A DNA stretch of 64,000 nucleotides from Anaerolineales bacterium (GTDB taxonomy: Bacteria > Chloroflexota > Anaerolineae > Anaerolineales > Villigracilaceae). The DNA is taken from positions 2,513,315 through 2,577,314 of the forward strand of contig JAXLVS010000001.1 in NCBI GenBank assembly GCA_046328875.1. Direction: 5' to 3'. Below, in pieces: positions 6,767-58,076 of the stretch. How positions within the stretch are numbered: position 1 is the stretch's first letter; every line of letters begins with the position of its first letter. Both the position numbers and the translations under genes were made by a program. The notes under the pieces are model-generated. The model saw nothing but the letters and a program-made list of their open reading frames with translations. It had not been told where the DNA came from and ran no database searches.

Positions 6767-7093
6767 TTACTTGATCTTGAACATCTGCGTAAGTTTCATT
6801 GCAAGATTCAAATCGCCTGCGAGCTTCAACTTACCAGCCATGAAGGCTTGCATTCCGTCAAGCTCGCCAGTGAAGATTTTTACATAATCAGCAGAGTCGG
6901 CGGTGAGAGTCATCTTGGGAGTGGCAAAGGTTCCTTGTGCAACTTCAACTTTTCCATCCTTGATCGTGGCGTACCATTCTCCAGGTTCTGCGCCTGTGAA
7001 CTTGAATTGAATTGTGGCGTCCAAGCCTGCGGCTTTTTCTGGGATGAATGCGCCAGGCATTTTGGACATGAGATCTGCTACGGTTAGTGCCAT
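6767..7093 (-). CDS. SCP2 sterol/lipid-binding domain protein
   Basis: IQFKFTG, LDGMQAFMAGKLKLAGDLNLAMKL; start MALTV at 7093 after SD AGGAG. Confidence 0.9.
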   Translation of the reverse strand: MALTVADLMSKMPGAFIPEKAAGLDATIQFKFTGAEPGEWYATIKDGKVEVAQGTFATPKMTLTADSADYVKIFTGELDGMQAFMAGKLKLAGDLNLAMKLTQMFKIK

Positions 7094-7114
7094 TGTTATT
7101 TCTCCTATTTTTTT

Positions 7115-7184
7115 GTAGAGGCGGGGTTTTCCCACCCAAATCTATTATAACTACATCATAAGGGCGAGGAGACCTCGCCCCTAT
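7115..7184. repeat. REP/REPIN-like paired palindromic element
   Basis: GTAGAGGCGGGGTTTTCCCACCC...AGGGCGAGGAGACCTCGCCCCTAT, a degenerate GTAGGGGCG..CGCCC / GGGCG..CGCCCCTAC pair. Confidence 0.6.
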
Positions 7185-7188
7185 ATTA

Positions 7189-8376
7189 TTAATTTTGCAA
7201 ATTCTCAAAGATCGCTGCAGCACCCATACCACCGCCAATGCACATGGTGACCATACCATACTTAGACTTGCGGCGACCCATTTCATAGATCAATTGGGTG
7301 GTGAGTTTGGAGCCTGTGCAGCCGAGGGGATGTCCGAGGGCAATTGCGCCACCGTTGACATTAACTTTTTCGGGGTCAATTTCAAGGGTTTGCATAACTG
7401 CTAATGATTGAGCAGCGAAGGCTTCATTCAATTCTATCAGGTCAATGTCGTTCAACGAAAGACCAGCGATTTTGACAGCCTTCGGGATGGCAGCAATGGG
7501 ACCAATTCCCATTAATTCTGGTGGGACGCCTCCCACGGCAAAGGAAACGAATCGAGCCAATGGTTTGAGTCCCAACTCGTGAGCCTTCTCTGCCGACATG
7601 ACCATCACAGCCGAAGCCCCGTCAGACATTTGGGAAGAGTTCCCAGCGGTGACCATGCCGCCTTCTTTGAAAGCAGGCCGCAGCTTGGAAAGACCGTCGA
7701 GCGTTGAATCGCCGCGCGGGCCTTCATCCCGTTTCACAGTGAAGGCACGCTTCACGGCTTTGCCGTCCACATATTCAACGACTTCCACATCAAGCGGAAT
7801 GAGCTCAGGATCGAAGATGCCAGAGTCAACAGCATGGGCGGCTTTCTGATTGCTCTTGAGTGCGAATTCATCTTGCTGTTCGCGGGTGATGCCATACTTG
7901 ACTGAAACATTTTCCGCGGTGAGACCCATGTTGGTGTAATACTGCGGCAGATCCTGCGCGAACTGCGGATTGGGCGAAAACTTGTAGCCCATCATCGGCA
8001 CCATGGACATGGATTCAACACCCGCGCCAATGCCAATCTCGATCTGTCCCGCTTGAATTGCATTCGCCACATGCGCAATGGACTGCACGCCTGACGAGCA
8101 ATAGCGGTTGATGGTTTCGGCGGGCACGGTGTCTGGCAAACCAGCGCGGATGGAAATTGTGCGCGCCACATTCATGCCCTGTTCACCTTCGGGGAATGCA
8201 CAACCAAAGACGATATCTTCAATTTGAGCAGGGTCAAGATTCGGTGTGCGCTTCAATAACTCCTGAAGAACTGCCGAGCCCATTTCATCGGGACGAACCG
8301 TTGCAAGTCCGCCGCGTTTTGCTTTTCCAACAGGGGTACGTACTGCGCTAACGATAACTGCTTCTCGAGTTGTCAT
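7189..8376 (-). CDS. fadA: Acetyl-CoA C-acyltransferase (thiolase)
   Basis: NRYCSSG (catalytic Cys), [18 protein letters not shown]. Confidence 0.95.
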
Positions 8377-8430
8377 TTGTTTATCTCCTTTGGAGAGTGG
8401 AAAGTAGGTTTACTCACCACTTTCAACTTT

Positions 8431-10812
8431 CTAGTTTCTAAGCGGTTTACCCGTCTGCAAAATGCTCCACATTCTCGCCTGAGTCTTTTCCTCGCCACAC
8501 AGAGACAGGAATGCTTCACGCTCCAAATCCAAAATATATTGCTCGCTCACCCAGGTCGGCTTGGACAAGTCGCCGCCAGCCATAACATACGCAAGTTTGG
8601 AGGCAATGTACGAGTCGTATTCGGTAATGTAATTGCCTTCCTTGAATGCCCATGCGCCAATCTTCATCGCACCGTACATGTCACGACCAGGCGCATAGAT
8701 CAACTCTGGCGCGGGCGGACGATATCCAGACGCGGCCATGTGCAATGCTTCTTTCTTGGCTTCGGTCAGCAAATGATCTCGATTGATCACAACTCGATCC
8801 TGCGGGCCTAAAATTCCCATGCCGCGCGCTTCTTCGGCAGACACAGCTACTTTGGCTTGACCAATTTGCAAGAACGCCTTTTGAATGAACGGGAATGTCT
8901 CAGCGCTTTCAACTTTGGCAGCGGGGTTGATAATGCGGCGCATATATTCTTTTGTGCCTGCACCCGCAGGGATCACGCCCGCACCAAGTTCCACCAAACC
9001 GATATAAGTCTCAGCAGCCGCAACGACTCTCGAACCGTGCATGGTAATTTCACAACCACCACCGAGAGCAAGTCCTGCAGGAGCGATAACCACAGGTTTG
9101 GGTGAATAGCGCATCCGCATATTCAAACCCTGCAATCTGCGGATCGCGCCATCGAGCTGATCCCACATGCCTTGTTGAGCAGCGACCACGACCATGAACA
9201 AATTTGCACCCGCACTAAAGTTATCCGCTTCACTGCCGATGACCAGACCATCGAATTCATTTTCAAGTCTATCCAACGCTTCGGAAGCGACCGCAAAGAT
9301 ATCGTCATCGAGCGCGTTCATCTTGGTGTGGAATTCAACCAGCGCAACGCCATCGCCAATATCATACAACGACGCGCCCGCATTCTTGCTGATCTCTTTC
9401 TTCGTACCGCGTAAATCCTTCAAGAACACAAAGCCTTCACTGGCCTTGAACTTCACATACTTCTTTTTAGACACATCGTACGCGCCAACTTTGTTATCGC
9501 CCTTGTATTGATAGAAGGTCTCAACACCGTTCTTCAACATTTCGTCCACCCATTTCGCGGCGGGGTATCCTTCGGCCTTCATACGCTTCACGGTCTCTTT
9601 CACGCCGAGCATGTCCCAAATCTCGAACGGGCCAGCATCGTGCATGAAACCCCAGCGGACCGCATCATCAATCGGCTTGGCAGTATCCGCGACTTCGGGG
9701 ATGAGAGTGGAGACGTACTGGAAACTTTGATAGGTCAACGCCTTGACTAACTTCGCCGCTTTGTCATCCGCCTCAAGCATGACCTTGAGCCTGTCACCCA
9801 ACCCTTCGACATCTTTCGCCGCCTTGACAGAGTCAAAGCGCGGCTTGCCCGCAGGGACATGCTCCATCGTATTCAGATCAAGCGAATAGAATTGCTTCTT
9901 TCCTTCAGCGTCGCGCACTTCCTTGTAAAAGCCAACTTTGGTTTTATTGCCAAGCCACTTGCGCTCCAATAACGTGTCCATCAACTTGCGAGGCTTTTCA
10001 GCGGCGAGATATTTCTGTCCGAGTTTATCGTGCGCGATCAACGGCGCAAGGTTCTTACCCACGTGATCCCACACATCCACACCGACCAGATCTATCAGCC
10101 TGAACGTTGCCGTTTTGGGCCGACCCATTAAAGGTCCAGTAATAGCGTCCACTTCGTCAACGGTATATTCGTTGTTGAGGATAAAGTCCATTGCGAAGGC
10201 ACCCGTTCCAAACGCAACTCGATTCCCAATAAAGTTCGGAGTGTCTTTGCAAAGCACCACGCCTTTGCCTAAGTCAAATTCACCGAAATGCATGAAGAAT
10301 TCAGTGACATCCTTGGCTGTGTCTGCGGTTGGAATGATCTCCAACAATTTGAGATAACGCGGCGGATTGAAGAAATGTGTGCCGAGGAAATGCTGCTTGA
10401 AGCCCTTCGAGCGGCCCTCAGCAATCGCCTTCACAGGAATACCAGACGTATTTGTCGAAACAATTGTGTTCGGCTTGCGAATTTCGTCAATACGCGCCAT
10501 CAAGTCTTGTTTGATCTTGAGGTTTTCGACAATGGCTTCGCAGACCCAATCCGCATCAGCAACCGCGCTGAAATCATCCTCAAGATTTCCAAGCGTGACG
10601 AGAGTTTTCAAGTCCGCACCCATTAAGTTGGCGGGCTTGGCTTTGATACAACGATCCCAACCTTCTTTGACGATCTTATTTTTATCAGGCGAGTCTTTCG
10701 CGACAATGTCGAGCAAGGTCACAGGCACGCCGATATTCGCAAGGTGCGCTGCAATGGCTGCACCCATTGTGCCCGAGCCGATGACAACTGCTTTGTGGAT
10801 GTGATATTTCAT
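8431..10812 (-). CDS. fadN: 3-hydroxyacyl-CoA dehydrogenase/enoyl-CoA hydratase fusion (FadN-like)
   Basis: GSGTMGAAIA, STNTSGI, HFFNPPRY, then crotonase FSAGANL, GGGCE, ELGAGVIP; start MKYHIH at 10812 with SD GAGG. Confidence 0.9.
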   Translation of the reverse strand: MKYHIHKAVVIGSGTMGAAIAAHLANIGVPVTLLDIVAKDSPDKNKIVKEGWDRCIKAKPANLMGADLKTLVTLGNLEDDFSAVADADWVCEAIVENLKIKQDLMARIDEIRKPNTIVSTNTSGIPVKAIAEGRSKGFKQHFLGTHFFNPPRYLKLLEIIPTADTAKDVTEFFMHFGEFDLGKGVVLCKDTPNFIGNRVAFGTGAFAMDFILNNEYTVDEVDAITGPLMGRPKTATFRLIDLVGVDVWDHVGKNLAPLIAHDKLGQKYLAAEKPRKLMDTLLERKWLGNKTKVGFYKEVRDAEGKKQFYSLDLNTMEHVPAGKPRFDSVKAAKDVEGLGDRLKVMLEADDKAAKLVKALTYQSFQYVSTLIPEVADTAKPIDDAVRWGFMHDAGPFEIWDMLGVKETVKRMKAEGYPAAKWVDEMLKNGVETFYQYKGDNKVGAYDVSKKKYVKFKASEGFVFLKDLRGTKKEISKNAGASLYDIGDGVALVEFHTKMNALDDDIFAVASEALDRLENEFDGLVIGSEADNFSAGANLFMVVVAAQQGMWDQLDGAIRRLQGLNMRMRYSPKPVVIAPAGLALGGGCEITMHGSRVVAAAETYIGLVELGAGVIPAGAGTKEYMRRIINPAAKVESAETFPFIQKAFLQIGQAKVAVSAEEARGMGILGPQDRVVINRDHLLTEAKKEALHMAASGYRPPAPELIYAPGRDMYGAMKIGAWAFKEGNYITEYDSYIASKLAYVMAGGDLSKPTWVSEQYILDLEREAFLSLCGEEKTQARMWSILQTGKPLRN

Positions 10813-47692: not shown

Positions 47693-49078
47693 CTATTCAA
47701 CAACTGGCAAACTCGCCGCTGCAACAGACTGGCCCACGCGGCGTATTTTTTCATCAGGCAAATGCAATTCGATCTTCCCAACTAACTCAGGGAATTCCGC
47801 CTCAAACACTTTCTTCGCGCCTTCGAGCAACAAGTCACCACCACGGCCAGAGGTACAACGGCCAAGGATTAGAACGTGCTTGATATCATAAAAATCCGCG
47901 TAGTGAGCAATGCCATAGCCAAGGTACACGCCCATGCTCTGCCAAATCTTCAACGCGCCTTCATGACCTGCATCCAATTTTTCCTGCACGAACTTCAACT
48001 TCTCGGCATCGGTCACATCCACTGGAATTTCAATTCCCGCTTTAGGTGCAAGGCGGAAAACACACTGCTGTGAAAAATAAGAAGCGCCGCAACCCTTGTC
48101 ATCAGACCATTCTTCCACGGGAGCCTTCGGGCTGTAATCAATCGGTGCAAAAGCCAATTCATTCAGCCAACCCATAATGTGACCTTCCATATTCACATAA
48201 CCTGCCGCTTCGCTGGAGCCGAGAGCAATTCCTAAAATCCCGTTATCTTCAATAGACATGGAACCTGCCAACGCAGTCACATCGCCATCGTTGATAACTT
48301 CCAAAGGCACACCTAATTCATCGCGAATGCGCAGGAACATATTTTTAATTTCGCTGAATTGCTCCTGAGGAATTCCGCGAAACAACGAAGCCACCATCGG
48401 ACGGTTATCAATATAAATACCTGCAGAGCTGCCACCAATTGCATCCACGCGCGGCATTTTGCTCGCAGCAGTTTTCAGTGCAGTCATCACTTCGCGATAG
48501 TGATATTCGGGATCAGAATTTTTGCGCGGCTCCCAAATCACTTCCTCGCTATAAATGGGATTCCCATCTACTACGGCGCTAACTTTGCGATCAGAGGCGC
48601 CGAGGTCAAACCCAATGCGATGACCCTGCAAATTGCGGCCGAGCAGTTTCCCCGTCTCACGCGAAGCGGGCACTTCATCCACACCGCAAGAGACAACGGA
48701 AAATTCCTTTTCGTACACCTGAGTCCCCATAAAGTGAAAATCAAATTTTTGCTCACCATTATTGCTATATACACTCTTCAAATATTCAGCAATCTTTGGC
48801 GAACCACCGACATGCAACGTATGTCCGCCGCGCTGCCAGAGCAAAAACTTAACGATGCGTTCAATATATTGAAAATTAGATTCGAAATTCGGATGACCTT
48901 CAGGATAAACTTTGGTCTCAAAGCGAGACACTTCGCCGCCGCTTCTTTCCACGCCGATCACTGTTCGCACACCAACAGACTCAACCTCACGCTGAAAATT
49001 TTGATTCGCCAAAATCGCAGGGCGAAAATCTTCATCCAATGGAGGTAACACTTGCGGAAGAACCAACTTCAAAGACAT
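47693..49078 (-). CDS. ROK-family sugar kinase with long N-terminal extension
   Basis: GFDLGASD, INDGDVTALA, LGSSEAAG, ELAF; no HTH and no CxCGxxGC zinc motif. Confidence 0.75.
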   Translation of the reverse strand: MSLKLVLPQVLPPLDEDFRPAILANQNFQREVESVGVRTVIGVERSGGEVSRFETKVYPEGHPNFESNFQYIERIVKFLLWQRGGHTLHVGGSPKIAEYLKSVYSNNGEQKFDFHFMGTQVYEKEFSVVSCGVDEVPASRETGKLLGRNLQGHRIGFDLGASDRKVSAVVDGNPIYSEEVIWEPRKNSDPEYHYREVMTALKTAASKMPRVDAIGGSSAGIYIDNRPMVASLFRGIPQEQFSEIKNMFLRIRDELGVPLEVINDGDVTALAGSMSIEDNGILGIALGSSEAAGYVNMEGHIMGWLNELAFAPIDYSPKAPVEEWSDDKGCGASYFSQQCVFRLAPKAGIEIPVDVTDAEKLKFVQEKLDAGHEGALKIWQSMGVYLGYGIAHYADFYDIKHVLILGRCTSGRGGDLLLEGAKKVFEAEFPELVGKIELHLPDEKIRRVGQSVAAASLPVVE

Positions 49079-50226
49079 TAATTTTCCTCGTTGAATAAAA
49101 GGGAATAATCATCAAGCAGCAAAAATGCGGAAGCGCCGAGGATACAAGCGCGATAATCCAATTTGCCGATCTCAAGTTTTGTGCTCTCAGCCATGCGTGT
49201 CAATGCACCTGTCTGCATGGACGAGCTAACTGCTTCCAACCACTCATCGCCGAAGCGTGTCATATCGCCTGTGAGGACGATTTTTTGAATATTTAGGATA
49301 CCGATCAAATTCGCGAGCGATGTACCGAGGTAATGACCTGCTTTTCCAACAACAGCGGTTGCCTTGGAATTCCCAGATTGAAACGATGAAATGACATCGT
49401 CCAAGGAATCCATTTTCATTTGCTGAACAACCGCCCGCGCACTGGAGAGGGTTTCTAAACAGCCGCGTTTGCCGCAACGGCAGAGCTCGCCATTTTCCTG
49501 CACAACCACGTGACCAATTTCGCCCGCGCCGCCGCCATCTCCCTGAAAGAGCTGTCCATCGATCAAAATACCTGCGCCAATACCATGCTTGACGTTAACC
49601 ACGATCAGGTTTTCATCAGGCACATGGTTGCCACCATATACGTATTCACCAATGGCAGTCGCTTGGCTGTCATTCAAAACAGAAACGGGGAGTTTGTATT
49701 TCTTCTGGAGCAATTGACCAAGTGGCAGATCCTGCCAAGCAAGATTTACTGCATTGACCACAATCCCATCACGGGTATTGATAAGGCCTGGAGCGCCCAC
49801 ACCAATGCCAACGATGGGTTTTAATTTTTTCCGAATAAGCTGGTCTAGGAGTTTGTAAACAATTTCAAGCGCATTTTCGCCATTGTCATCATGAACAGGC
49901 GCTTCGACAAGTTCCTTGATCTCGCCCCGTAAGTTGACCACTGCCCCAATGAATTTATCTTGTGCCAAGTTCAAGCCGATCAAATAGCGCGAGTCAGCTA
50001 CGATGCTGAGCAAGATGGGCGATTTTCCGCCAATAGACTCACCGCGTCCAACTTCTTCCACCAAACCTTCAGCAAGCAAGCCGTTGACCACATCCGAGAC
50101 CGTAGTGCGTGTGAGATTGGTTACACGCGCTACTTCGGCACGGCTGATCGACTCGTTGACAAAGATCGTCCGCAGGACAAGATCGCGATTATGCTGTTTG
50201 GTTTGTTGGTGAGTTGCTTTTTTCAT
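49078..50226 (-). CDS. ROK-family transcriptional regulator (NagC/XylR-like)
   Basis: HTH ISRAEVARVTNLTRTTVS; GEIGH; CRCGKRGCLE; TAATG coupling to the kinase gene. Confidence 0.92.
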   Translation of the reverse strand: MKKATHQQTKQHNRDLVLRTIFVNESISRAEVARVTNLTRTTVSDVVNGLLAEGLVEEVGRGESIGGKSPILLSIVADSRYLIGLNLAQDKFIGAVVNLRGEIKELVEAPVHDDNGENALEIVYKLLDQLIRKKLKPIVGIGVGAPGLINTRDGIVVNAVNLAWQDLPLGQLLQKKYKLPVSVLNDSQATAIGEYVYGGNHVPDENLIVVNVKHGIGAGILIDGQLFQGDGGGAGEIGHVVVQENGELCRCGKRGCLETLSSARAVVQQMKMDSLDDVISSFQSGNSKATAVVGKAGHYLGTSLANLIGILNIQKIVLTGDMTRFGDEWLEAVSSSMQTGALTRMAESTKLEIGKLDYRACILGASAFLLLDDYSLLFNEEN

Positions 50227-50336
50227 AGCTAACGAAAAATCCTTGAAACCTAATTTCTTGAATTTATGTCTACACGCAGAACCAAAACTACTAACTAGCA
50301 TAAAATACTTTGTAAATTCACTGGACTAACAAACTC

Positions 50337-50375: not shown

Positions 50376-50404
50376 TTGACAAAAAATTTAGTCTTGGCTA
50401 AAAT
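50376..50404 (+). promoter_or_regulatory. Sigma70-type promoter for the metal operon
   Basis: TTGACA-17 nt-TAAAAT. Confidence 0.75.
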
Positions 50405-50426
50405 AAATTTAGCTTAGACTAAATTT
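50384..50426. promoter_or_regulatory. Tandem DtxR/MntR-type operators
   Basis: AAATTTAGTCTTGGCTAAAATA (50384-50405) and AAATTTAGCTTAGACTAAATTT (50405-50426), offset by 21 bp, covering the -10 and +1 of an operon that encodes DtxR proteins. Confidence 0.75.
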
Positions 50427-50436
50427 TAGGTGAACT

Positions 50437-51123
50437 ATGAATGCAATCCAAATTACTGGTCTGCTCGCAATTCTTGGTGCAATCCTCTACGCTATTGGTG
50501 ATACCTTTCTCCTCGCGAACAAAGTGGACATCAACCACTATCCAAAACTTGTGCCGTTTAAAAAATTGCTTTCAGATACTGAAAAATTCGTCTCCATCCC
50601 TTCCGGAAAAATGATGTGGGGTGCGCTACTCGGTGTCTTTTCAACACCACTCATAATGGCAGGTTTCTGGCATATCTATGAAGGATTATCAGGAGCCAAT
50701 CAGATACTTAGAGCAATTATTTTCTTCCTGTTTGTCATCGCATCGGTGACCGGCGCATTCGTACATGGCTCATTCTTTTATGCAGGCGAATATGTCAAAG
50801 CGCTGAACGCAGTCAGTGAAGATTCACAAAACGTGATCGTTGAATTATTCAACCGCCACCGCCAGGTGCTTATCATCACCTATGCTCCCCTGCTCATCAT
50901 GGTCATCATTGCATCTGGGTTATTTTCCATGGCAGTCATTACAAGTCAAACTCTTTTCCCTGCGTGGATGGCAGCGATCAACCCAGTCACAATGACCATT
51001 GTCTGGCTTTTACTTAAACGAATTCTGCCAGCCTTCATGACAGACCCACTTGAAGGTGCAGGCTTCAACGTTGCTTACTTTGTATTTTTTGTTTGCACAA
51101 CCATCACTCTTTGGAGCGCATAA
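50437..51123 (+). CDS. Multi-pass membrane protein (DUF6796-like)
   Basis: About 6 hydrophobic helices; YAIGDTFL, VHGSF, WMAAINP; the family assignment is from memory. Confidence 0.55.
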   Translation: MNAIQITGLLAILGAILYAIGDTFLLANKVDINHYPKLVPFKKLLSDTEKFVSIPSGKMMWGALLGVFSTPLIMAGFWHIYEGLSGANQILRAIIFFLFVIASVTGAFVHGSFFYAGEYVKALNAVSEDSQNVIVELFNRHRQVLIITYAPLLIMVIIASGLFSMAVITSQTLFPAWMAAINPVTMTIVWLLLKRILPAFMTDPLEGAGFNVAYFVFFVCTTITLWSA

Positions 51124-51129
51124 ATAAAA

Positions 51130-51807
51130 ATGGAACAAACCCTCACCAACTCCATTCAGGACTATCTGAAAAATATCTACGAACTCACTGAAAATGGTGA
51201 GAGTGCAAGCACCAATGCACTTGCATCCAGGCTTAATGTCAAACCTGCATCTGTGACTGGCATGGTGCAAAAATTAGCATCAGCAAAACCTGCACTCGTT
51301 GAGTATCAAAAACATCAGGGCGTGACATTGACCAATGATGGAAAAAAGGCAGCACTGGAAGTGATCCGCCACCACCGATTATTGGAAACATGGCTCGTGC
51401 AAACACTCGGCTACACATGGGACGAAGTCCATGCGGAGGCAGAAAAGCTGGAGCACGTCATCTCGGAGGATTTCGAGAGACGCATCGCCGCCGCCATGGG
51501 ACATCCGCTTCGCGACCCACACGGAGAGTTGATCCCCACTGCCGATCTTAAGATGCCGTTGGATGATTCGACTCCGCTCTCCTCGCTTCGCACCAATCAA
51601 TGTGGGACGATCCAATACGTAAAAGCCACAGACGCAGATCTACTCAAATACTTTGAGAATCTCGGGTTGATTCCTGGAACAGAAATAGAAGTAAAAGACT
51701 ACTCCCCCTTTGACCATAACCTGACCATCAAGATCGGGCGCAAGTCTGTTGTGCTCGGATTGAACATCACAAGCAAAATATATGTAAAAGAAAAACAAAC
51801 AAGTTAG
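51130..51807 (+). CDS. DtxR/MntR-family metal-dependent repressor with C-terminal FeoA/SH3 domain
   Basis: QDYLK, PASVTGMVQKL, HHRLLETWL, VHAEAEKLEH, DPHGELIP, LGLIPG. Confidence 0.93.
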   Translation: MEQTLTNSIQDYLKNIYELTENGESASTNALASRLNVKPASVTGMVQKLASAKPALVEYQKHQGVTLTNDGKKAALEVIRHHRLLETWLVQTLGYTWDEVHAEAEKLEHVISEDFERRIAAAMGHPLRDPHGELIPTADLKMPLDDSTPLSSLRTNQCGTIQYVKATDADLLKYFENLGLIPGTEIEVKDYSPFDHNLTIKIGRKSVVLGLNITSKIYVKEKQTS

Positions 51808-51834: not shown

Positions 51835-52434
51835 ATGAACGAAAACATTTTCCGTACTTTAGCCGCGTTGACTCTTTTTACTGGAATAGGCATCTCAAGC
51901 TACTTTCGTATAAAAGCAGATAAAGAAACAGGCGAGAAAATCTCCCGCAAAGTAGACGGTTCTGTCATGATGAACATCATTAAATTCCTTGGGCTGGCTT
52001 TATGGTTAAGCCCGATCATTTATTTGATAAACCCAAAGTGGATGGCTTGGTCCAAGATCGGGCTACCAGAATCCATGCGCTGGCTAGGAATTGGCATTGC
52101 AATTGTCAATGATGTGTTACTGTATTGGCTGTTTAGCAGCATCGGCAGCGGAATCTCTCCCACCAGCGCCACCCGCAAAGAACATAAACTATCCACTAGC
52201 GGACCGTACCGCTGGGTTCGGCATCCGCTTTACACCGTGGGGGCCGTGCTATTCATTTCATTTGGAATGATGGCCGACAACTGGTTTATCGCAGTCTTGG
52301 GAATTTTAGCTTTCATCGCTATGGCAAAACGAACGCCGCAAGAAGAAGCCAATCTCATCGAAAAATTTGGTGACGAATACAAGGAATACATGAAACACAC
52401 AGGACGATTTTTACCAAAACTAGGAAGCAAATAA
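51835..52434 (+). CDS. ICMT/PEMT-family membrane methyltransferase
   Basis: GPYRWVRHPLY, EEANLIEKFGDEYKEYM. Confidence 0.85.
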   Translation: MNENIFRTLAALTLFTGIGISSYFRIKADKETGEKISRKVDGSVMMNIIKFLGLALWLSPIIYLINPKWMAWSKIGLPESMRWLGIGIAIVNDVLLYWLFSSIGSGISPTSATRKEHKLSTSGPYRWVRHPLYTVGAVLFISFGMMADNWFIAVLGILAFIAMAKRTPQEEANLIEKFGDEYKEYMKHTGRFLPKLGSK

Positions 52435-52436
52435 TT

Positions 52437-53441
52437 ATGACTATGACCGTTTGGCTCGTACTGGCAATCCTTTTGATTTCCGCAATTTTCATCCCGCGCG
52501 TAGGACTTATCGCGATCTATAAAACCTATCGCGCTGCTAGAGAACGTGAATTAGTGGAAGATGCGCTCAAACATTTGCTTGACCGTGAACAACATGGAAG
52601 GCAGGCATCTCCCGAATCATTGGCAGGTACATTGAACTTGCAACGAAGCCGAGTTACCCGCCTAATTGAGGATATGGAAACTCAAGGCCTGCTCGAATCA
52701 CGCGGCATGAATCTACACCTCACCACACAAGGTGAAAGATGGGCGCTGCATGTTGTCCGTGCGCACCGTTTATGGGAACGTTATCTCACAGACGAAGCGC
52801 GCATGCCACTGGGAAAGATCCATGGCGAATCGGAAAGACGCGAACACTCGCTCACGGAAGCACAGCTTAATGATCTGGATGCGGCTCTGGGCCACCCGAC
52901 TCGTGACCCACATGGCGATCCAATCCCTACCCGTGAGGGGACTCTGCTCAAGGCGGAGGGAATGCCGTTGACGGCGTGGCAGGATGAAGGTCCAGCACGG
53001 ATCGTGCACCTTGAAGATGAGCCTGCCTTAGCGTTTGAACAAATCTTGGCAGCAGGACTCCGTTTGGGGCAAACCATCCGCATATTGGATCGAAGTCCTC
53101 AACGAATATTGTTGACTGACGGCGAAACCGAATTCCGTCTTGCACCTGCTGTTGCAGCCAATGTGAGTGTGGCGCCGCTCCCTGAAAGTGAAGTTGCTAA
53201 AGCGAACTCGATCCCATTGGCTGAGTTGACGTATGACCAACGTGCCGAGATCGTAGTGCTGGATGAAGCTGTGCAAGGGTTTACGCGCAGACGATTTTTG
53301 GATCTTGGGTTGACACCCGGTACGGTAATCTACCCTGAATTACAAAATTTCTTTGGCGACCCGCGTGCCTACCGTGTGCGTGGAACATTGATAGCACTGC
53401 GAAAAGATCAGGCGGCGCAGATCTGGGTGAAGCCTGTGTAA
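52437..53441 (+). CDS. Membrane-anchored DtxR-like protein fused to two FeoA domains
   Basis: N-terminal hydrophobic helix; EDALKHL, HRLWERYL, IHGESERREH, DPHGDPIP; FeoA LAAGLRLG and RRRFLDLGLTPG..GDPRAYRVRG. Confidence 0.8.
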   Translation: MTMTVWLVLAILLISAIFIPRVGLIAIYKTYRAARERELVEDALKHLLDREQHGRQASPESLAGTLNLQRSRVTRLIEDMETQGLLESRGMNLHLTTQGERWALHVVRAHRLWERYLTDEARMPLGKIHGESERREHSLTEAQLNDLDAALGHPTRDPHGDPIPTREGTLLKAEGMPLTAWQDEGPARIVHLEDEPALAFEQILAAGLRLGQTIRILDRSPQRILLTDGETEFRLAPAVAANVSVAPLPESEVAKANSIPLAELTYDQRAEIVVLDEAVQGFTRRRFLDLGLTPGTVIYPELQNFFGDPRAYRVRGTLIALRKDQAAQIWVKPV

Positions 53442-53516
53442 TACACGCGGAAACAAGTAGACAAACACAAAACGTGTACGCAATTATTTATTTACGAACT
53501 TTTGAAAAGAGAAACT

Positions 53517-54353
53517 ATGACAAATACAAAAACTGTACTCCCTACCGAACATTGTGAGACCTGTCCTGCATTTACTCAGCTGGAGCAGATGGGAATCAAA
53601 GTTGGAGATTTTGACCGAGTAGTAGCGCTAGCAGGAAACCCGAATACAGGAAAATCCACGCTATTCAATGCGTTAACTGGGTTAAAGCAACATACTGGCA
53701 ACTGGCCAGGCAAAACTGTGACGCGCGCTGAAGGTGGTTTTGAGTTTAACAAGATGCGTTACAAGTTAGTTGACCTGCCTGGGACTTATTCGCTGCTTTC
53801 TGCATCACAAGATGAGGAAGTGGCTCGCGATTTTATTTTGTTCGGACAGCCAAGCTGCACGATTGTAGTATGTGATGCAACATCGCTGGAAAGAAATTTA
53901 AACCTCGTTTTACAAGTTATGGAAATTACCGAACATGTTGTTGTTGCAATCAACCTCATGGATGAAGCAAAACGAAAAGGTCTCGAAGTAGACGCACGTT
54001 CCTTGAGCCGTGACCTCGGCATTCCCGCCATTGCGATCACCGCTAGAACTGGCGAAGGGATTCATACTCTGTTGGGTGCAGTTTCAGATGTGATCGAAGG
54101 AAAAGTTGAGACCAAGCCTTTACGCGTGAATGGCACACCTGAATTTCAAAAGGCTGTAAATGAACTGGTGCCAATGATCGAACAAATGGCACCTGGGATT
54201 CCGAATGCACGCTGGCTTGCGATTCGCCTTTTGGATGGTGACGCACGCGTACAAAAAGCATTGTCCACTGGTGAGTTGGGAGATATTGTCTCGCGTCAAC
54301 AGCGGGCAGATGTGCAATTTAGCGGGAAGATGTCAGTTGAAGGAAGGCAATAA
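53517..54353 (+). CDS. feoB: FeoB N-terminal GTPase/helical domain (split gene)
   Basis: GNPNTGKS, GNWPGKTV, DLPG, NLMD, TARTGEG; N-terminal CETC. Confidence 0.88.
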   Translation: MTNTKTVLPTEHCETCPAFTQLEQMGIKVGDFDRVVALAGNPNTGKSTLFNALTGLKQHTGNWPGKTVTRAEGGFEFNKMRYKLVDLPGTYSLLSASQDEEVARDFILFGQPSCTIVVCDATSLERNLNLVLQVMEITEHVVVAINLMDEAKRKGLEVDARSLSRDLGIPAIAITARTGEGIHTLLGAVSDVIEGKVETKPLRVNGTPEFQKAVNELVPMIEQMAPGIPNARWLAIRLLDGDARVQKALSTGELGDIVSRQQRADVQFSGKMSVEGRQ

Positions 54354-54356
54354 TTT

Positions 54357-55745
54357 ATGGAAGCAAATGAAATTTTAGCAAAAGCAGAAGCATTAAGAAA
54401 CGGCCTCTCCACGGGATTCCGCGACGAAATCGTAAAATCACTTTACACAGAAGCAGAGACCATCGCAAGACGAGCCGTAAAAACCGCTTCAGATAAAAAA
54501 TATGATTTTGACCAAAAAATAGACCGCCTCGTCACTTCGCCTTATGCGGGACTGCCCATTATGTTGCTCTTGCTCGGCCTCGTTATCTGGCTGACAGTCT
54601 CAGGCGCCAACGTGGTTTCAAACTGGATCGCCATCGTGCTGTTCGGCATTGGTGACTATGGACGAGCGCTCTTCAACCAGATCGGTATGCCGTGGTGGAT
54701 CACAGGCTTCGTTTGGGATGGTGTGTATCTTGGGCTTGCGTGGGTTGTCAGTGTGATGCTGCCGCCGATGATGATCTTCTTCCCAGCTTTCACATTTTTG
54801 GAAGACCTCGGCTATCTGCCACGTGTGGCGTTCAATATGGATTGGCTATTCAAGAAAACAGGTGCGCATGGCAAACAATCTTTGACGATGGCAATGGGAT
54901 TTGGATGCAACGCAGCAGGTGTGATCGCGACTCGCGTGATCGACTCTCCACGTGAACGATTGATCGCCATCCTGACCAATAACTTTGTCCCATGCAATGG
55001 GCGCTTCCCAACTTTGATTATGCTTGCTACTGTTTTCGTGGCAGCGTCCTTCCCCCCAGCATTGACCTCTTTCGTAGCCGCTGGGACAGTTGTCGGCGTT
55101 GTGTTGATCGGTGTGATGTTCACATTTCTCGCGTCGTGGGTATTATCCAAAACTGTCTTGAAAGGCGAAGCATCCGCCTTCACATTGGAACTACCTCCCT
55201 ACCGCAGACCCAACGTCAGCCGCATACTGTATACATCCATCATTGACCGTACCATCTTCGTACTGTGGCGCGCCATGCAAACTGCCGCTCCTGCGGGCGC
55301 GATCATTTGGATCCTTGCGAACATCCACATTGGAGACTCAAATCTTGCACGTGCAATCGCAGATTGGCTCAATCCCTTTGGCTTGCTGCTCGGATTAGAC
55401 GGCGTGATCCTTTTAGCATACATCATCGCCATTCCTGCAAATGAAATTGTCGTCCCGACCATGATGATGGTGTACATGGGCGCTGGCATGATGGTTAATG
55501 GGCCAACTTCAAACCATGCGATCTTTGACTTGCTTGTCAACGGCAATGGCTGGACCATGCTTACAGCAGTCAATTTGATGTTGTTCGCGCTGCTGCACAA
55601 TCCGTGCGCCACAACGATCATGACGATTTACAAAGAAACCAAATCACTCAAGTGGGCGACATTAAGCGTTGTAATGACTTTAGGAACTGCATTTTTAGTT
55701 ACATTCTTAACTGCAAGTGTCGCAAGATTGTTAGGTTGGGCATAA
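54357..55745 (+). CDS. feoB: FeoB membrane (Gate) domain (split gene)
   Basis: LEDLGYLPRVAF, MGFGCNA, PCNGR, LELPPYRRP, PANE, PCATT. Confidence 0.88.
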   Translation: MEANEILAKAEALRNGLSTGFRDEIVKSLYTEAETIARRAVKTASDKKYDFDQKIDRLVTSPYAGLPIMLLLLGLVIWLTVSGANVVSNWIAIVLFGIGDYGRALFNQIGMPWWITGFVWDGVYLGLAWVVSVMLPPMMIFFPAFTFLEDLGYLPRVAFNMDWLFKKTGAHGKQSLTMAMGFGCNAAGVIATRVIDSPRERLIAILTNNFVPCNGRFPTLIMLATVFVAASFPPALTSFVAAGTVVGVVLIGVMFTFLASWVLSKTVLKGEASAFTLELPPYRRPNVSRILYTSIIDRTIFVLWRAMQTAAPAGAIIWILANIHIGDSNLARAIADWLNPFGLLLGLDGVILLAYIIAIPANEIVVPTMMMVYMGAGMMVNGPTSNHAIFDLLVNGNGWTMLTAVNLMLFALLHNPCATTIMTIYKETKSLKWATLSVVMTLGTAFLVTFLTASVARLLGWA

Positions 55746-55801: not shown

Positions 55802-55831
55802 CAAATTTATTAGTTACATTTAGAGGTGATT

Positions 55832-56872
55832 ATGAAGAACAAATTTTCAAGAAGAGATCTTATCAAATTAGGTGGGTTTGGAATTTTAACAGCGGCGGGA
55901 AGCGTGGCTCTCACAAACCTCACACCCGCCGAAAAGGCAGACCACAAATCACATTTATTACAAACTCCCACTCCAATGGATCATGGAGTTCTGCCTGGAA
56001 CAGGAGATGTGAACCATGAAAGAAATGGCTTCAACCCAGGCGAGACTCTTTATGACTTTGACTATGGTTCTGTTTCAACACTCCCCAACGGCCAAACCTT
56101 GCGTGAGTATGAAATCGTCACGGTCAATAAAAATATTGAAGTAGTTCCAGGGATTGATTTCATCGCATGGACATATAACGGACGCATCCCAGGTCCCACG
56201 ATTCGTGCCACCGAAGGCGACCGAATTCGCATCCACTTCAAGAATGGGAGCGACCATCCGCACTCCATGCACTTTCATGGATTTCACCCCGGTGAAATGG
56301 ATGGCGTGCCAGGCACAGGTCCCGGGGGAATGGTGAACCCAGGCGAAGAGTTTATTTATGAATTCGATGCGGAACCGTTCGGGCTGCATTTGTATCATTG
56401 CCATGTTTTCCCATTAGCACGCCACATCGCTAAAGGACTTTACGGCGCGTTCATCGTTGACCCAAAAGATGGCCGCCCGCCTGTAGACAAGGAAATGGTC
56501 ATGGTCATGAACGGGATTGATATAGACTTTGACAACGTGAACGACTTCTATGCAGTTAATGGAATTCCTTTTTATTATCAAAACCATCCCATTCAAATCA
56601 AAGTCGGTGAAACAGTTCGTATTTATCTCGTCAACATTCTTGAATTCGATATCATAAACTCCTTTCATCTCCACGCGAATTTCTTTCACTACTATCCTAC
56701 GGGCACCAGCCTAACGCCATCAGATTTTACAGATACTATCATTCAAGGTCAGGCACAACGTGGCATTCTGGAATTCAGCTACAAACATCCTGGCATGTAT
56801 ATGTTCCACGCTCATGTGACCGAGTTCGCAGAACTCGGCTGGAACGGTATGTTTGAAGTGCTTCCAGCGTAA
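55832..56872 (+). CDS. Tat-exported two-domain multicopper oxidase (type C pattern)
   Basis: SRRDLIK Tat signal; HSMHFHG, YHCHV..RHIAKGL in domain 1; NSFHLHAN, MFHAH in domain 2 (no T1 Cys). Confidence 0.88.
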   Translation: MKNKFSRRDLIKLGGFGILTAAGSVALTNLTPAEKADHKSHLLQTPTPMDHGVLPGTGDVNHERNGFNPGETLYDFDYGSVSTLPNGQTLREYEIVTVNKNIEVVPGIDFIAWTYNGRIPGPTIRATEGDRIRIHFKNGSDHPHSMHFHGFHPGEMDGVPGTGPGGMVNPGEEFIYEFDAEPFGLHLYHCHVFPLARHIAKGLYGAFIVDPKDGRPPVDKEMVMVMNGIDIDFDNVNDFYAVNGIPFYYQNHPIQIKVGETVRIYLVNILEFDIINSFHLHANFFHYYPTGTSLTPSDFTDTIIQGQAQRGILEFSYKHPGMYMFHAHVTEFAELGWNGMFEVLPA

Positions 56873-56876
56873 GGAG

Positions 56877-58076
56877 ATGCCGACAATGACCGAACAATCA
56901 TCCGTTACGACAAAGAGCCGCTTCACTTATCAGACCCTTATACTGCTTCTGATCCCAATCATTCTCCTCGCTGGAGTTATTGTCCTCTTTCTAAAAACAG
57001 GCGGTGGACTTGAGCTCCACTCTCCTGCGCCTATTGAAAACCTGACGATCGAAAGATATCACCTTGAGCGGGGACATATTGAATTGCACGTTCAAAATAA
57101 CGGCCCCGCTCCATTGACCATTGCGCAAGTCATCGTCAATGATGCAGTCATGCCATTCGAAGTTTCTCCTAACGCCACCATTCCCCGACTCGGCAAAGCG
57201 TTCATCATGATCAACTACGCGTGGACTGCAGGCGAAGCATACGGCGTGCGTATCTTCACCAGTAACGCCATTCCATTTGATGTGGCAATCCCTGTCGCAT
57301 TTGCAACACCTGCGCCAGAAACAAAGACTTTCTGGGGCTTCACTCTTATCGGTCTATACGTTGGCGTCATCCCGATATTCCTTGGGATTTTCTGGCTTCC
57401 AGCACTTCGAGCCCTTGGCAAACAGTGGATGACCTTTCTGATGGCCGTGACAACAGGCCTGCTGCTATTCCTTGGCATAGACACTCTTGTAGAGGCGCTA
57501 GATCAAGCGAAAGATGTTCCTTCTACATTCCAAGGGATTGGGCTGATTGGCATTGGTGTAGTTGCCACTTACTTGCTTCTTGATATGATCGGCAACTTAA
57601 AATCTTCTGACCGATCCGAAGTGTCCCAACGACTCAATATTGCATGGAGAATTGCATTGGGTATTGGTGTCCACAACCTTGGCGAAGGTCTTGCAATTGG
57701 CGCAGCTTACAACGTAGGAGAAATTTCTTTAGGCACGTTCCTTGTAGTTGGCTTCATCATTCAAAACATCACCGAAGGGCTTGGCATCATCTCCCCCATC
57801 TTGCGTGATCGACCAAATATTCGCCAACTCGCGTTGTTGGGCTTGCTTGGTGGTGGTCCAGCCGTCCTCGGCGCATGGATCGGCGGATACACGCCCTCAC
57901 CCTTTCTTGCAGTCCTTTTCCTAGCAGTTGGCACTGGTGCCATCTTCCAAGTGGCGGTTGAAATCGCAAAGATGATCCAGAAAGACAACGCAAAACAACC
58001 CATGCCAGGGTTTATCTTTAGTGGTGTAGTTACTGGTATGTGTCTGCTTTGGGTGACAGGTCTACTGATTAAATAG
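56877..58076 (+). CDS. ZIP-family metal transporter with extracytoplasmic Ig-like N-terminal domain
   Basis: GIGVHNLGEGLAIG, IQNITEGLGI; N-terminal TM plus a beta-rich domain. Confidence 0.8.
   Translation: MPTMTEQSSVTTKSRFTYQTLILLLIPIILLAGVIVLFLKTGGGLELHSPAPIENLTIERYHLERGHIELHVQNNGPAPLTIAQVIVNDAVMPFEVSPNATIPRLGKAFIMINYAWTAGEAYGVRIFTSNAIPFDVAIPVAFATPAPETKTFWGFTLIGLYVGVIPIFLGIFWLPALRALGKQWMTFLMAVTTGLLLFLGIDTLVEALDQAKDVPSTFQGIGLIGIGVVATYLLLDMIGNLKSSDRSEVSQRLNIAWRIALGIGVHNLGEGLAIGAAYNVGEISLGTFLVVGFIIQNITEGLGIISPILRDRPNIRQLALLGLLGGGPAVLGAWIGGYTPSPFLAVLFLAVGTGAIFQVAVEIAKMIQKDNAKQPMPGFIFSGVVTGMCLLWVTGLLIK

Follow-up and report, generated by a model that had tools for sequence, protein, structure and literature searches.

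The closest described relative of the protein considered here is PgMntR (PG1044) of Porphyromonas gingivalis, which was reported in 2016 as belonging to a “DtxR subfamily with two FeoA domains” and is encoded in the operon of FeoB2, an Mn2+ importer (PMC4805248). PgMntR is a dimer that binds three Mn(II) or two Fe(II) ions per monomer with high affinity, and it has been read as a repressor from a weak, metal-independent gel shift (PMC4805248). As it shifted a 385-bp fragment of its own operon promoter, and not two control DNAs, the family has some affinity for DNA; however, the shift required 700-1000 nM protein and survived 1 mM EDTA without metal, and DNA binding was abolished by removing the basic second FeoA domain, with the operator remaining unmapped (PMC4805248). 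A preliminary description of the locus analyzed below knew of no characterized example of its architecture; this has to be corrected, since PgMntR is a biochemically characterized member of the family, albeit one without the N-terminal helix (PMC4805248).

Further parallels come from other partners of FeoB, from Mn repressors, and from ABC importers. FeoA proper, a soluble single-domain protein of ~8 kDa, binds NFeoB and stabilizes its GTP form (PMC8980893), and every Feo operon has FeoA or a FeoA-like domain according to published surveys (PMC8749426). Fusions such as the FeoAB of Bacteroides fragilis make the tethering of FeoA near the G-domain a recurrent solution (PMC8980893), whereas DtxR-fused FeoA proteins were deliberately excluded from the published survey of FeoA architectures. 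In Gammaproteobacteria, FeoC, a small winged-helix protein formerly presumed to be a regulator, in fact interacts with the G-domain of FeoB and regulates how stable the transporter is. Among the repressors, DR2539-type proteins are soluble and read the operator TTTAG-N6-CTAAA via an Ala-Pro turn and the neighboring residues of helix alpha3 (Ser/Thr/Arg/Lys), a wing Tyr, and Tyr12. Finally, in the ABC importers with ModC and MetN, a cytoplasmic regulator-related substrate-binding module closes the importer when substrate builds up (trans-inhibition).

The window (the whole 64-kb stretch of DNA analyzed) contains the following features of a comparable system:

50376..50423, plus strand: operon promoter TTGACA-17-TAAAAT (50376-50404) with two MntR-type boxes (sequence pattern; likeness to the DR2539 operator)
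51130..51807, plus strand: soluble canonical MntR/DtxR-type repressor (PF01325, PF02742, and FeoA; NF047407, 223.7 bits)
52437..53441, plus strand: gene for a DtxR-FeoA-FeoA protein, predicted to be membrane anchored (ORF; PF02742; two PF04023; AlphaFold2 pLDDT 96; family search)
53502..54353, plus strand: feoB part 1, coding for the soluble G-domain and helical domain (PF02421, 1.4e-59; PF17910)
54357..55745, plus strand: feoB part 2, coding for the membrane permease with Gate and FeoB_C domains (Pfam; TIGR00437 positions 213-594)

The gene at 52437-53441 opens with an ATG 2 nt after the stop of the preceding gene, has an SD-like AGGAAG 5' of it, and codes for a product of 334 aa; the preliminary description had given this frame exactly the same ends. 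The protein has a domain order identical to that of PgMntR and, likewise, a gene for a FeoB-type transporter alongside. Full-length homologues of PgMntR include proteins from Roseiflexus, Anaerolinea, Melioribacter, and Ignavibacterium that carry the motifs of the 334-aa protein, namely, ED-x-LK, RAHRLWERYL, H-x-EDEP, and RRRLLDLG; the inclusion of PgMntR in the family rests on these shared motifs and on the published S1 Fig alignment (PMC4805248). The 334-aa protein is accordingly of the PgMntR type in combining a DtxR module with two FeoA domains and a FeoB-type transporter, but it departs from it in having a predicted TM helix instead of being soluble: PgMntR is without such a helix, and PMC4805248 mentions none in the homologues. 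Another difference lies at the primary metal site, where Cys108 of PgMntR corresponds to E133. In the literature, we found no description of a membrane-anchored DtxR-FeoA protein or of a split FeoB, and both the anchor and the loss of DNA-reading residues appear to be undescribed.

Within the 334-aa protein, a predicted N-terminal TM helix is followed by a full DtxR/MntR fold and then by two FeoA domains:

52440..52496, plus strand: predicted TM anchor, residues 2-20 (model helix 2-18; Kyte-Doolittle; family conservation; charge pattern)
52506..52592, plus strand: one continuous helix, residues 24-52 (DSSP of the AlphaFold2 model)
52593..52724, plus strand: winged helix-turn-helix, residues 53-96 (fold retained, DNA-reading residues gone)
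52725..52946, plus strand: dimerization/metal-binding domain, residues 97-170 (PF02742; ligand positions; DR2539 ligand list)
52959..53177, plus strand: first FeoA/SH3-like domain, residues 175-247 (NCBIfam MntR model; D194; model strands)
53211..53438, plus strand: second, canonical FeoA domain, residues 259-334 (PF04023; FeoA structures; invariant residues)

The AlphaFold2 model (pLDDT 96, pTM 0.84) predicts the complete fold of winged-helix, dimerization, and SH3 domains, and the structure that Foldseek ranks closest to it is 5zr6, an Mn repressor (TM-score 0.91, rmsd 1.9 Å). This fold is common to DR2539/MntR-type structures (8pvt, 8pw0, 5zr6; TM-score ~0.9), with 8pvt, 8pvz, and 8pw0 showing 40-41% identity to the first two domains in the Foldseek alignments. 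PF02742 matches residues 96-165 (5.5e-21), and the NCBIfam MntR model spans residues 38-247. The first FeoA/SH3-like domain, with strands at 187-247 in the model, is the usual C-terminal ancillary domain of DtxR proteins and bears H191-x-E193-D194-E195, in which the invariant D194 provides a metal ligand. FeoA is found by Pfam in two stretches, the last of which (259-333) covers positions 1-74 of the 74 in PF04023, as the preliminary description had it when it spoke of two FeoA domains, the final one canonical. This second domain resembles the solved FeoA structures 2k4y, 2k5l, and 2k5f, has R286, D289, G291, and R322 invariant, and is basic in the family (mean, +4.0). In contrast to the 8-kDa FeoA, the whole protein (~34 kDa) has four domains plus the TM helix, i.e., a sensor module and a putative membrane anchor; FeoA is here fused to a repressor chassis, as opposed to FeoB in the B. 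fragilis FeoAB. Relative to DR2539-type repressors, it lacks the DNA-reading residues, is predicted to be anchored, and has one extra FeoA domain.

The anchor is marked by hydropathy, conservation, and charge. By Kyte-Doolittle, the best 19-mer (from residue 7) scores 2.58, against 0.87 for the runner-up in the protein and a maximum of 0.64 in the soluble paralogue at 51130-51807. An equivalent helix is present in 124 of 150 representatives (33-57% identity) and in 63/73 loci, so that the hydrophobic N terminus of ~20 residues pointed out earlier is not a chance feature. It is conserved as a hydrophobic segment while its residues drift freely, and it ends in a conserved F-x-P..G-L break (P20, G23). 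On average across the family, 3.4 residues lie ahead of the helix, the hydrophobic run extends over 16-25 residues, and the net charge is -0.25 ahead of the helix versus +4.4 over the next 20 residues. Since this strongly basic stretch follows the hydrophobic run, the C-terminal part is placed in the cytoplasm, and we infer a single N-terminal TM helix with the N terminus outside and the remainder cytoplasmic. The preliminary description had allowed for a true start beyond the hydrophobic segment; a start codon 3' of it was rejected, as the stretch remains coding and hydrophobic in homologues at identities between 97% and 33%. An exported protein with a cleavable signal peptide was likewise rejected, given an n-region that is not basic, the run of 16-25 residues, and the +4.4 after it. 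In crossing the membrane once and placing a winged helix in the cytoplasm, the protein is reminiscent of ToxR and CadC; however, in those regulators the sensor domain is periplasmic and the DNA-reading surface is conserved, whereas here the helix begins at residue 2-4, leaving an outer tail of ~3 residues and no room for a periplasmic sensor domain, with sensing predicted to be cytoplasmic and the surface decayed. Past the anchor, residues 24-52 (~31% K/R in the family) form a basic linker (K29, R32, R35, R37) that merges into DtxR helix alpha1. The idea of a surface-lying amphipathic helix at residues 24-38 was unsupported, their hydrophobic moment not exceeding that of shuffles (mean z, 0.23), and they are simply a basic linker. 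Helix alpha1 bears E41-D42-A-L-K45-H46, with E41, D42, and K45 near-invariant across the family and D42 being a primary-site ligand.

The metal-binding apparatus is strongly retained. Of the DR2539 ligands at the primary site and the binuclear ancillary site, all 11 are kept (D42, E133, E136, H137, H110, E114, H129, D157, H159, D161, and D194), of which H110, E114, H129, E133, E136, H137, D157, H159, and D161 lie in the dimerization/metal domain, where PF02742 carries both ligand sets of DtxR/MntR proteins. D194 is the equivalent of the ancillary-site ligand D163 of DR2539, and the position of E133 is E, H, or D within the family. Over 60 diverse members from seven phyla, the 11 positions are conserved at 93-100%, which extends the earlier remark that H/E ligands are retained. 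FeoB2, whose operon includes the PgMntR gene, transports Mn, so that Mn2+ may be the metal here as well; we regard it as no less likely than Fe2+. One alternative is that the sensor module, placed where ions leave FeoB for the cytoplasm, serves as an acceptor or chaperone that takes the ion and buffers it or passes it on without regulating flux. The very high metal affinity of PgMntR, with three Mn(II) per monomer, and the presumed membrane position beside the permease would suit such a role; however, DtxR-type sites are without known precedent as transfer sites, a low-copy operon partner would offer little stoichiometric buffering, and on present observations the role would look the same as sensing, making this reading quite improbable.

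The winged helix presents a different picture. In the 34 loci holding both an anchored-family protein and a soluble MntR paralogue, entropy is 2.51 in the recognition helix and 2.13 in the wing of the anchored family, versus 1.49 and 1.63, respectively, in the paired soluble paralogues, whereas the metal domains are under equal constraint (1.43 versus 1.36). The winged helix has a mean net charge of -0.69 in the anchored family versus +2.63 in the paralogues (p=7e-6), the equivalent of the phosphate-contacting Tyr12 is Tyr in 0/60 family members, and PF01325, which matched 6/60 members, gives no match in the 334-aa protein. The winged-helix fold is present, though without the PF01325 signature and conserved DNA-contact residues of DtxR/MntR proteins; hence, the winged helix and dimerization domain reported earlier stand as fold and as H/E/D ligands, but not as a recognizable PF01325 domain. 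The anchored family has thus lost conservation and positive charge in its recognition helix, in its wing, and at the position of the Tyr that contacts phosphate. In DR2539, the residues immediately ahead of alpha1 contact the DNA backbone; in the model of the 334-aa protein this end extends as a helix toward the membrane, which also speaks for a role other than DNA reading. Against such a role stand the fully kept winged-helix fold, the three arginines that helix alpha3 of the 334-aa protein retains, and a linker that might leave space for DNA between membrane and protein.

The operator points to another reader. The TTTAG-N6-CTAAA boxes at 50387-50402 and 50408-50423, which overlap and then trail the promoter, resemble the DR2539 operator ATTTTAGTCGCGCCTAAAAT. 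Such boxes occur upstream of 34/66 related clusters, across phyla, against a background elsewhere of 0.010 per 260 bp (an enrichment of >50-fold). No exact box is found directly 5' of the 52437 gene or feoB, those at 50387-50423 being the only ones in the window. The soluble DtxR paralogue lies two genes upstream of the anchored one, as noted before, and its orthologues retain a P-A-S-V-T recognition helix and a K-Y-R-G wing. Operator-reading residues are kept by the soluble paralogues but absent from the anchored family, for which reason the operator is assigned to the paralogue at 51130-51807 as its likely reader. Metatranscriptome contigs cover related strains only thinly and in patches, enough to place the region in RNA libraries but too little to delimit the transcript.

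These observations bear on the possibility that the protein is a membrane-tethered, metal-dependent DtxR-type repressor that still binds DNA, perhaps its own operon promoter, with the second FeoA domain assisting the protein to fold or to hold on to DNA, the part suggested for it in PgMntR. The complete DtxR fold in a high-confidence model, the label “DtxR family transcriptional regulator” that public databases give to the family, and the selective shift by PgMntR of its own promoter fragment over two controls, with binding raised by Mn2+, speak for such a repressor, as do boxes upstream of many clusters without a nearby soluble paralogue (none lies within 7 kb in 36/73 loci). However, a canonical soluble paralogue is present in 37/73 loci, an operator conserved across phyla is difficult to square with a variable recognition helix and wing, the positive charge has vanished, the Tyr contact is lost in 60/60 members, and PF01325 is undetected. 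The PgMntR precedent is itself weak, metal independent, and reliant on the basic FeoA2 domain, and a tethered repressor would leave the constant succession of feoB and the missing feoA unexplained; we consider it unlikely. Of the two roles put forward in the preliminary description, “coupling flux to transcription” is thus disfavored, because the winged helix has lost its DNA-reading residues and positive charge, because soluble paralogues of the same locus keep those residues, and because the operator is conserved across phyla while the recognition helix of the anchored protein is not; “gating transport directly” is favored.

A latent regulator can also be envisaged, in which the anchor sequesters the protein until proteolysis releases DtxR-FeoA-FeoA as a soluble protein, with a cytoplasmic action resembling that of PgMntR. 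Helix-less members do exist, namely, PgMntR and four complete loci (L054, L066, L069, L074), which implies that the anchor is dispensable for the function of the family, and a conserved P..G break lies past the helix. Yet the clusters have no conserved protease gene, the freed form would still be without DNA-reading residues, and helix-less representatives share an equally degenerate winged helix, leaving proteolytic release very improbable. By the same token, the helix-less members were rejected as a separate subgroup of canonical repressors. Many helix-less representatives begin inside the basic linker, suggesting mis-called starts.

In this locus, feoB is naturally divided between the genes at 53502-54353 and at 54357-55745. 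The frame of part 1 opens with TTG at 53502, 60 nt downstream of the anchored gene; the likely start is the ATG at 53517, 75 nt past the stop, and homologues align from residue 6. At the junction of the parts, TAA is followed after 3 nt by ATG, with AAGGAAGG upstream. Split feoB recurs in 42/65 complete loci. The architecture survey proposed in the preliminary description recovered 342 clusters of the anchored architecture (50% identity, E<=1e-30) from at least seven phyla; its observation that the gene directly precedes feoB extends to all related loci, where the gene for the FeoB N-domain follows immediately in 73/73, often with overlapping stop and start. A free FeoA ORF, whose absence had also been remarked on, is not found in the 64-kb window, in which the soluble paralogue at 51130-51807 is the only other FeoA-bearing ORF; nor is one found in related loci, except for L072, an unfused order mntR - feoA - feoB with a split FeoB, a free FeoA, and no anchor. 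As with free FeoA and FeoAB, the protein contains a canonical FeoA domain of full length, here at its C-terminal end, and the gene stands in the place of feoA ahead of feoB. A strict tie of the anchor to split FeoB was rejected (36 anchored loci have a split and 20 a fused FeoB), as were genes for ICMT-like and DUF6796 proteins as conserved partners, each occurring in few loci only.

The obligate pairing with feoB and the split of soluble G-protein from permease in 42/65 complete loci are also what one would expect if the protein were a constitutive scaffold, an enlarged anchored FeoA that keeps the G-domain of FeoB, often a separate protein, at the permease, with metal sites that are structural and do no sensing; a split FeoB would imply a need for a tether. 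The metal-free dimerization of PgMntR, whose secondary structure is unaltered by metal, is in keeping with this. Conversely, the two exchangeable regulatory sites keep 11/11 ligands, at 93-100% across seven phyla, DtxR proteins are not known to have structural sites of this type, the anchor also accompanies unsplit FeoB (20 loci), and L072 combines a split FeoB and free FeoA with no anchor. We hold a constitutive scaffold to be rather improbable.

We propose instead, with slightly better than even confidence, that an exapted repressor now works as a FeoA that is anchored in the membrane, senses metal, and gates FeoB posttranslationally, transcription being left to the soluble MntR. Because a sensor without DNA reading is joined to a helper domain, the transporter is probably switched by the metal level of the cell. 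The protein would be the FeoA component of a Feo-type transporter, built on a repressor chassis blind to DNA, with the TM helix holding the dimeric DtxR/MntR sensing module, and the canonical FeoA in which it terminates, at the membrane. The FeoA domain may engage the FeoB G-domain, here a separate soluble polypeptide; such docking is suggested by gene order and by the behavior of FeoA domains elsewhere. Cytoplasmic Mn2+ or Fe2+ would fill the metal sites and so shift the sensor and FeoA domains, and plentiful metal would presumably lower import, amounting to fast feedback at the transporter itself, while operon transcription would be under the separate control of the soluble MntR paralogue at the two promoter boxes. 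FeoC, whose likeness is one of role and not claimed homology, provides an earlier case of a winged helix that serves FeoB instead of DNA, although it has no metal-sensing dimerization domain, FeoA domain, or anchor. The proposed mechanism would also work like the trans-inhibition of ModC/MetN; there, however, the module is part of the same chain as the ATPase subunit, whereas the present one is a separate anchored protein with a putative action on a G-protein-coupled permease. More specifically, a transcription factor chassis may have been turned into an allosteric valve, in which the metal-loaded, anchored DtxR dimer presents FeoA to, or withdraws it from, the FeoB G-protein, a version to which we give somewhat less than an even chance.

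The role of FeoA and the posttranslational control of Feo transport are long-standing questions, and the joining of FeoA to a well-understood metal switch provides a direct way to test how FeoA acts on FeoB. The recurrence of a separate G-domain gene in 42 loci also bears on NFeoB-only proteins without a TM region (as in FeoA-NFeoB fusions), which were earlier suspected to be sequencing errors. Given the “regulator” label in databases and the filtering of the FeoA survey, regulon predictions and Feo inventories may be wrong, with annotation possibly affected in Chloroflexota, Acidobacteriota, Bacteroidota, Ignavibacteriota, Gemmatimonadota, and other phyla; PgMntR, too, merits a second look, together with FeoB2, the Mn transporter of P. 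gingivalis, an oral pathogen. If the allosteric valve holds true, the published “repressor” PgMntR would really be the FeoA of the manganese transporter FeoB2, FeoB could exist as a three-piece machine of anchored sensor-FeoA, soluble G-protein, and permease, and in at least seven phyla the substrate would feed back within seconds to inhibit its own Feo/Meo-type importer.

The cluster around the target gene, which encodes the DtxR-FeoA-FeoA protein directly before feoB, is organized as follows.

47693-49078, minus strand: 461-aa protein abutting the ROK-family gene, no Pfam match
49078-50301, minus strand: ROK-family regulator with an N-terminal winged helix, divergent from the operon
50376-50404: strong operon promoter TTGACA-17-TAAAAT, the best sigma-70-like one of the region (11/12 matches)
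50387-50402 and 50408-50423: two exact TTTAG-N6-CTAAA palindromes, overlapping and following the promoter
50437-51123: DUF6796 membrane protein, first operon gene, directly behind the operator boxes
51130-51807, plus strand: soluble MntR/DtxR-type paralogue
51835-52434: ICMT/PEMT-family membrane protein resembling isoprenylcysteine carboxyl methyltransferases, located between the genes for the soluble MntR and the target
52437-53441, plus strand: target gene, ATG start, 334 aa
53502-54353: soluble G-domain protein of a feoB split in frame
54357-55745: FeoB permease, separated from the G-domain gene by TAA, 3 nt, ATG
55826-58076: two-domain multicopper oxidase with a Tat-like N-terminus (RRDLIKLGG) and ZIP-family metal transporter, with a 20-nt mutual overlap

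The target gene starts 2 nt after the stop of the preceding gene, with an SD-like AGGAAG 5' of its ATG. Pfam recovers a DtxR dimerisation/metal domain (residues 96-165, 5.5e-21) and matches FeoA over two segments, the latter of which (259-333) covers the full profile; the DNA-binding model PF01325 has no Pfam match in the target and matches the soluble paralogue clearly (9.6e-17). Residues 38-247 align to the NCBIfam model of Thermus-type MntR; hence, the first "FeoA" is the usual SH3-like ancillary domain of DtxR proteins, and only the second is an addition to the DtxR layout. The AlphaFold2 model, built on an alignment of 60 diverse homologues (pLDDT 96, pTM 0.84), has these elements.

Residues 2-18: helix
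Residues 19-23: break
Residues 24-52: single long helix, a basic linker running into DtxR helix alpha1
Residues 59-66 and 70-82: helices
Residues 86-95: wing
Thereafter: dimerisation helices, then two SH3 barrels

Foldseek matches of this model are Mn repressors and DtxR/IdeR-DNA complexes, the top one being 5zr6 (TM-score 0.91, rmsd 1.9 A). ORF call, Pfam, and model thus agree on the reading frame, the DtxR fold, and the two FeoA domains, the last canonical, of the preliminary description.

The hydrophobic N-terminus that had been noted behaves as a real membrane segment. Its Kyte-Doolittle maximum (19-residue window) is 2.58 against 0.87 for the remainder of the protein, and in relatives at 81-97% identity the segment stays hydrophobic while its sequence drifts. 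An exhaustive HMMER search over 1.84 billion cluster representatives returned 342 proteins with E<=1e-30, of which the top 150 are nearly all 325-365 aa long, with alignments beginning at residue 3-16 and 33-57% identity to the target for near-full-length proteins. This survey of the architecture found the anchored layout, with its N-terminal helix, in 124/150. In 118 members of full length, a mean of 3.4 residues (net charge -0.25) precedes the helix, and the first 20 residues behind it have a net charge of +4.4; the helix leads into a conserved F-x-P..G-L break and a linker rich in Arg/Lys. This charge pattern is that of a predicted N-out, C-in signal anchor. A cleaved signal peptide was rejected on the same charges.

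To assess the DNA-reading surface, we used as a matched control the 34 loci in which a family member occurs together with a soluble paralogue; overall divergence of the two is alike (44% versus 41% identity to references, respectively).

Table. Entropy and net charge of the family versus soluble paralogues in 34 matched loci
Entropy, metal/dimer domain: family 1.43; soluble paralogues 1.36
Entropy, recognition helix: family 2.51; soluble paralogues 1.49
Entropy, wing: family 2.13; soluble paralogues 1.63
Net charge, alpha2-alpha3-wing: family -0.69; soluble paralogues +2.63 (paired Wilcoxon p=7e-6)

The soluble paralogues retain a P-A-S-V-T..M..K-K-L helix and a K-Y-R-G wing, whereas the family in these loci has no consensus at recognition-helix and wing positions. 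In the target, Glu78-Asp79 replace two helix lysines of the paralogues; in 60/60 family members the equivalent of the DNA-backbone Tyr of DR2539, the Deinococcus Mn repressor, is Ala, Ile, Thr, or Ser, and PF01325 matches only 6/60. The winged helix first described therefore stands as a modeled fold but probably not as a DNA reader, its DNA-reading residues being lost.

The promoter boxes, which resemble the DR2539 operator ATTTTAGTCGCGCCTAAAAT, have no further exact copies elsewhere in the window. Of the related loci, 34/66 have a box with <=1 mismatch in the 250 bp that precede the first cluster gene, against a density elsewhere of 0.010 per 260 bp, an enrichment of >50-fold upstream of clusters from many phyla. 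As an operator kept so constant across phyla calls for a reading helix that is conserved too, the box points to the soluble MntR, which has one, as the predicted reader and not to the anchored protein. The residues right before alpha1 of DR2539 touch the DNA backbone; in the target model this end is extended by a helix running towards the membrane, so that the former DNA face would point at the bilayer. Two less likely rival readings are a tethered repressor and a proteolytically released regulator.

The sensor, on the other hand, is intact. DR2539, the nearest solved relative (40-41% identity over two domains in Foldseek alignments), has a primary site of D11, E102, E105, and H106 and a binuclear ancillary site of H79, E83, H98, D126, H128, and D130 plus D163 from the SH3 domain; the equivalents in the target are D42, E133, E136, and H137, and H110, E114, H129, D157, H159, D161, and D194. 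Across 60 members (31-56% identity), ten of the eleven positions are 93-100% conserved, and the eleventh is E, H, or D, each able to bind metal, which bears out the retained H/E ligands of the preliminary description. Devoid of Met or Cys, the set shows the manganese-type pattern, though such sites can also take Fe2+. The DNA-reading surface has thus decayed selectively beside a conserved sensor. Two further rivals, also less likely, are a constitutive scaffold and a metal acceptor.

When one genome was scanned for each species, 80 loci emerged, distributed over Chloroflexota, Acidobacteriota, Ignavibacteriota, Gemmatimonadota, Bacteroidota, Verrucomicrobiota, Calditrichota, and Actinomycetota, two being from cultured Maribacter strains. 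The adjacency to feoB holds throughout: in 73/73 loci that hold a family member, its gene is followed directly by a feoB N-domain gene, and the stop of the one often overlaps the start of the other. Searched with an HMM of the second FeoA domain, the 64 kb window has no free FeoA ORF, as had been stated, and among related loci only L072 (Actinomycetospora chlora, 6968-10246) has one. Hence, the target occupies the exact position of feoA, and according to published surveys no Feo operon is without a FeoA or FeoA-like domain (PMC8749426). Locus L072 has, in order, a soluble canonical DtxR/MntR gene, a free 79-aa feoA, and a split feoB, which looks like the state ancestral to the fusion. Of the 73 loci, 37 also contain a soluble canonical paralogue, which is directly upstream in 23. 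In a metatranscriptome contig from sludge, belonging to a related strain, 53441 is followed directly by 53509 and the 67 nt between them are absent; therefore, in some relatives the target stop abuts feoB without a spacer.

The feoB split recurs with intact ORFs in 42/65 complete related loci, from Chloroflexota, Ignavibacteriota, Bacteroidota, and some Acidobacteriota; Gemmatimonadota and other Acidobacteriota have the fused form. Proteins with NFeoB only and no TM region (FeoA-NFeoB fusions) have been suspected to be sequencing errors (PMC8980893). In the window, AAGGAAGG lies upstream of the permease-gene ATG. Three loci (L043, L061, and L071), all from MAGs that may be long-read assemblies, have several ORFs in place of an intact family gene, feoB, or both, and indel errors are as likely an explanation as real decay. 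The ICMT-like gene recurs in few relatives only (L001 and L071; weaker in L010 and L019), and the DUF6796 gene also lies beside the cluster in L001. The oxidase-ZIP pair is upstream of the cluster in L001 and downstream in the window, marking the neighborhood as a rearranging metal island.

The earlier statement that no characterised example is known needs correction: the architecture belongs to the known twin-FeoA DtxR subfamily, of which PgMntR of Porphyromonas gingivalis, whose gene shares an operon with that of the Mn transporter FeoB2, is a characterised member. The supplementary alignment of the PgMntR paper (PMC4805248) holds proteins from Roseiflexus, Anaerolinea, Melioribacter, Ignavibacterium, Cytophaga, and others, several with the target motifs and several visibly starting with a hydrophobic helix; PgMntR, unlike the target, has no such helix, and a membrane segment is mentioned nowhere in the paper. 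PgMntR is a dimer, each monomer of which binds three Mn(II) or two Fe(II). Its gel shift required 700-1000 nM protein on a 385-bp fragment, survived 1 mM EDTA, and was abolished by deleting the very basic second FeoA domain, with neither operator nor in vivo effect shown (PMC4805248). That domain is basic throughout the family (mean +4.0). We consider the shift weak support for a repressor role; it would also fit with PgMntR serving as FeoA to FeoB2. Transporters resembling FeoB2 have been suggested to form a "Meo" system, a manganese branch of Feo; for this reason the metal in the present case may be Mn2+, not Fe2+. DtxR-fused FeoA proteins were removed by hand from the largest FeoA architecture survey (PMC8980893), DtxR goes unmentioned in an evolutionary survey of Feo (PMC8749426), and our literature search found no description of the anchored form.

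Taking these findings together, we lean, by a modest margin of belief, towards the target acting as the FeoA of its transporter. The anchor would hold a dimeric metal sensor at the membrane, and the canonical FeoA domain would engage the FeoB G-domain; elsewhere, FeoA binds NFeoB nucleotide-dependently, stabilising the GTP form (PMC8980893). Metal loading of the conserved sites would shift the sensor and FeoA domains and lower import, while the soluble MntR would repress the operon at the palindromic boxes. A family-specific conserved patch in alpha1-alpha2 (E41, K45, H46, S61, and G64) may be a new protein contact, and FeoC offers a precedent for a winged helix serving FeoB instead of DNA. 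The sensor docked on FeoB that had first been imagined is thus supported in its anchor, feoA position, and intact sensor, and not in its lack of a characterised example. Feedback would then act at two tiers, one slow and one fast, through two copies of one ancient sensor. The membrane anchor, the selective DNA-surface decay beside an intact sensor, and the obligate replacement of feoA all appear new, and jointly suggest that the family has a function other than the published one.
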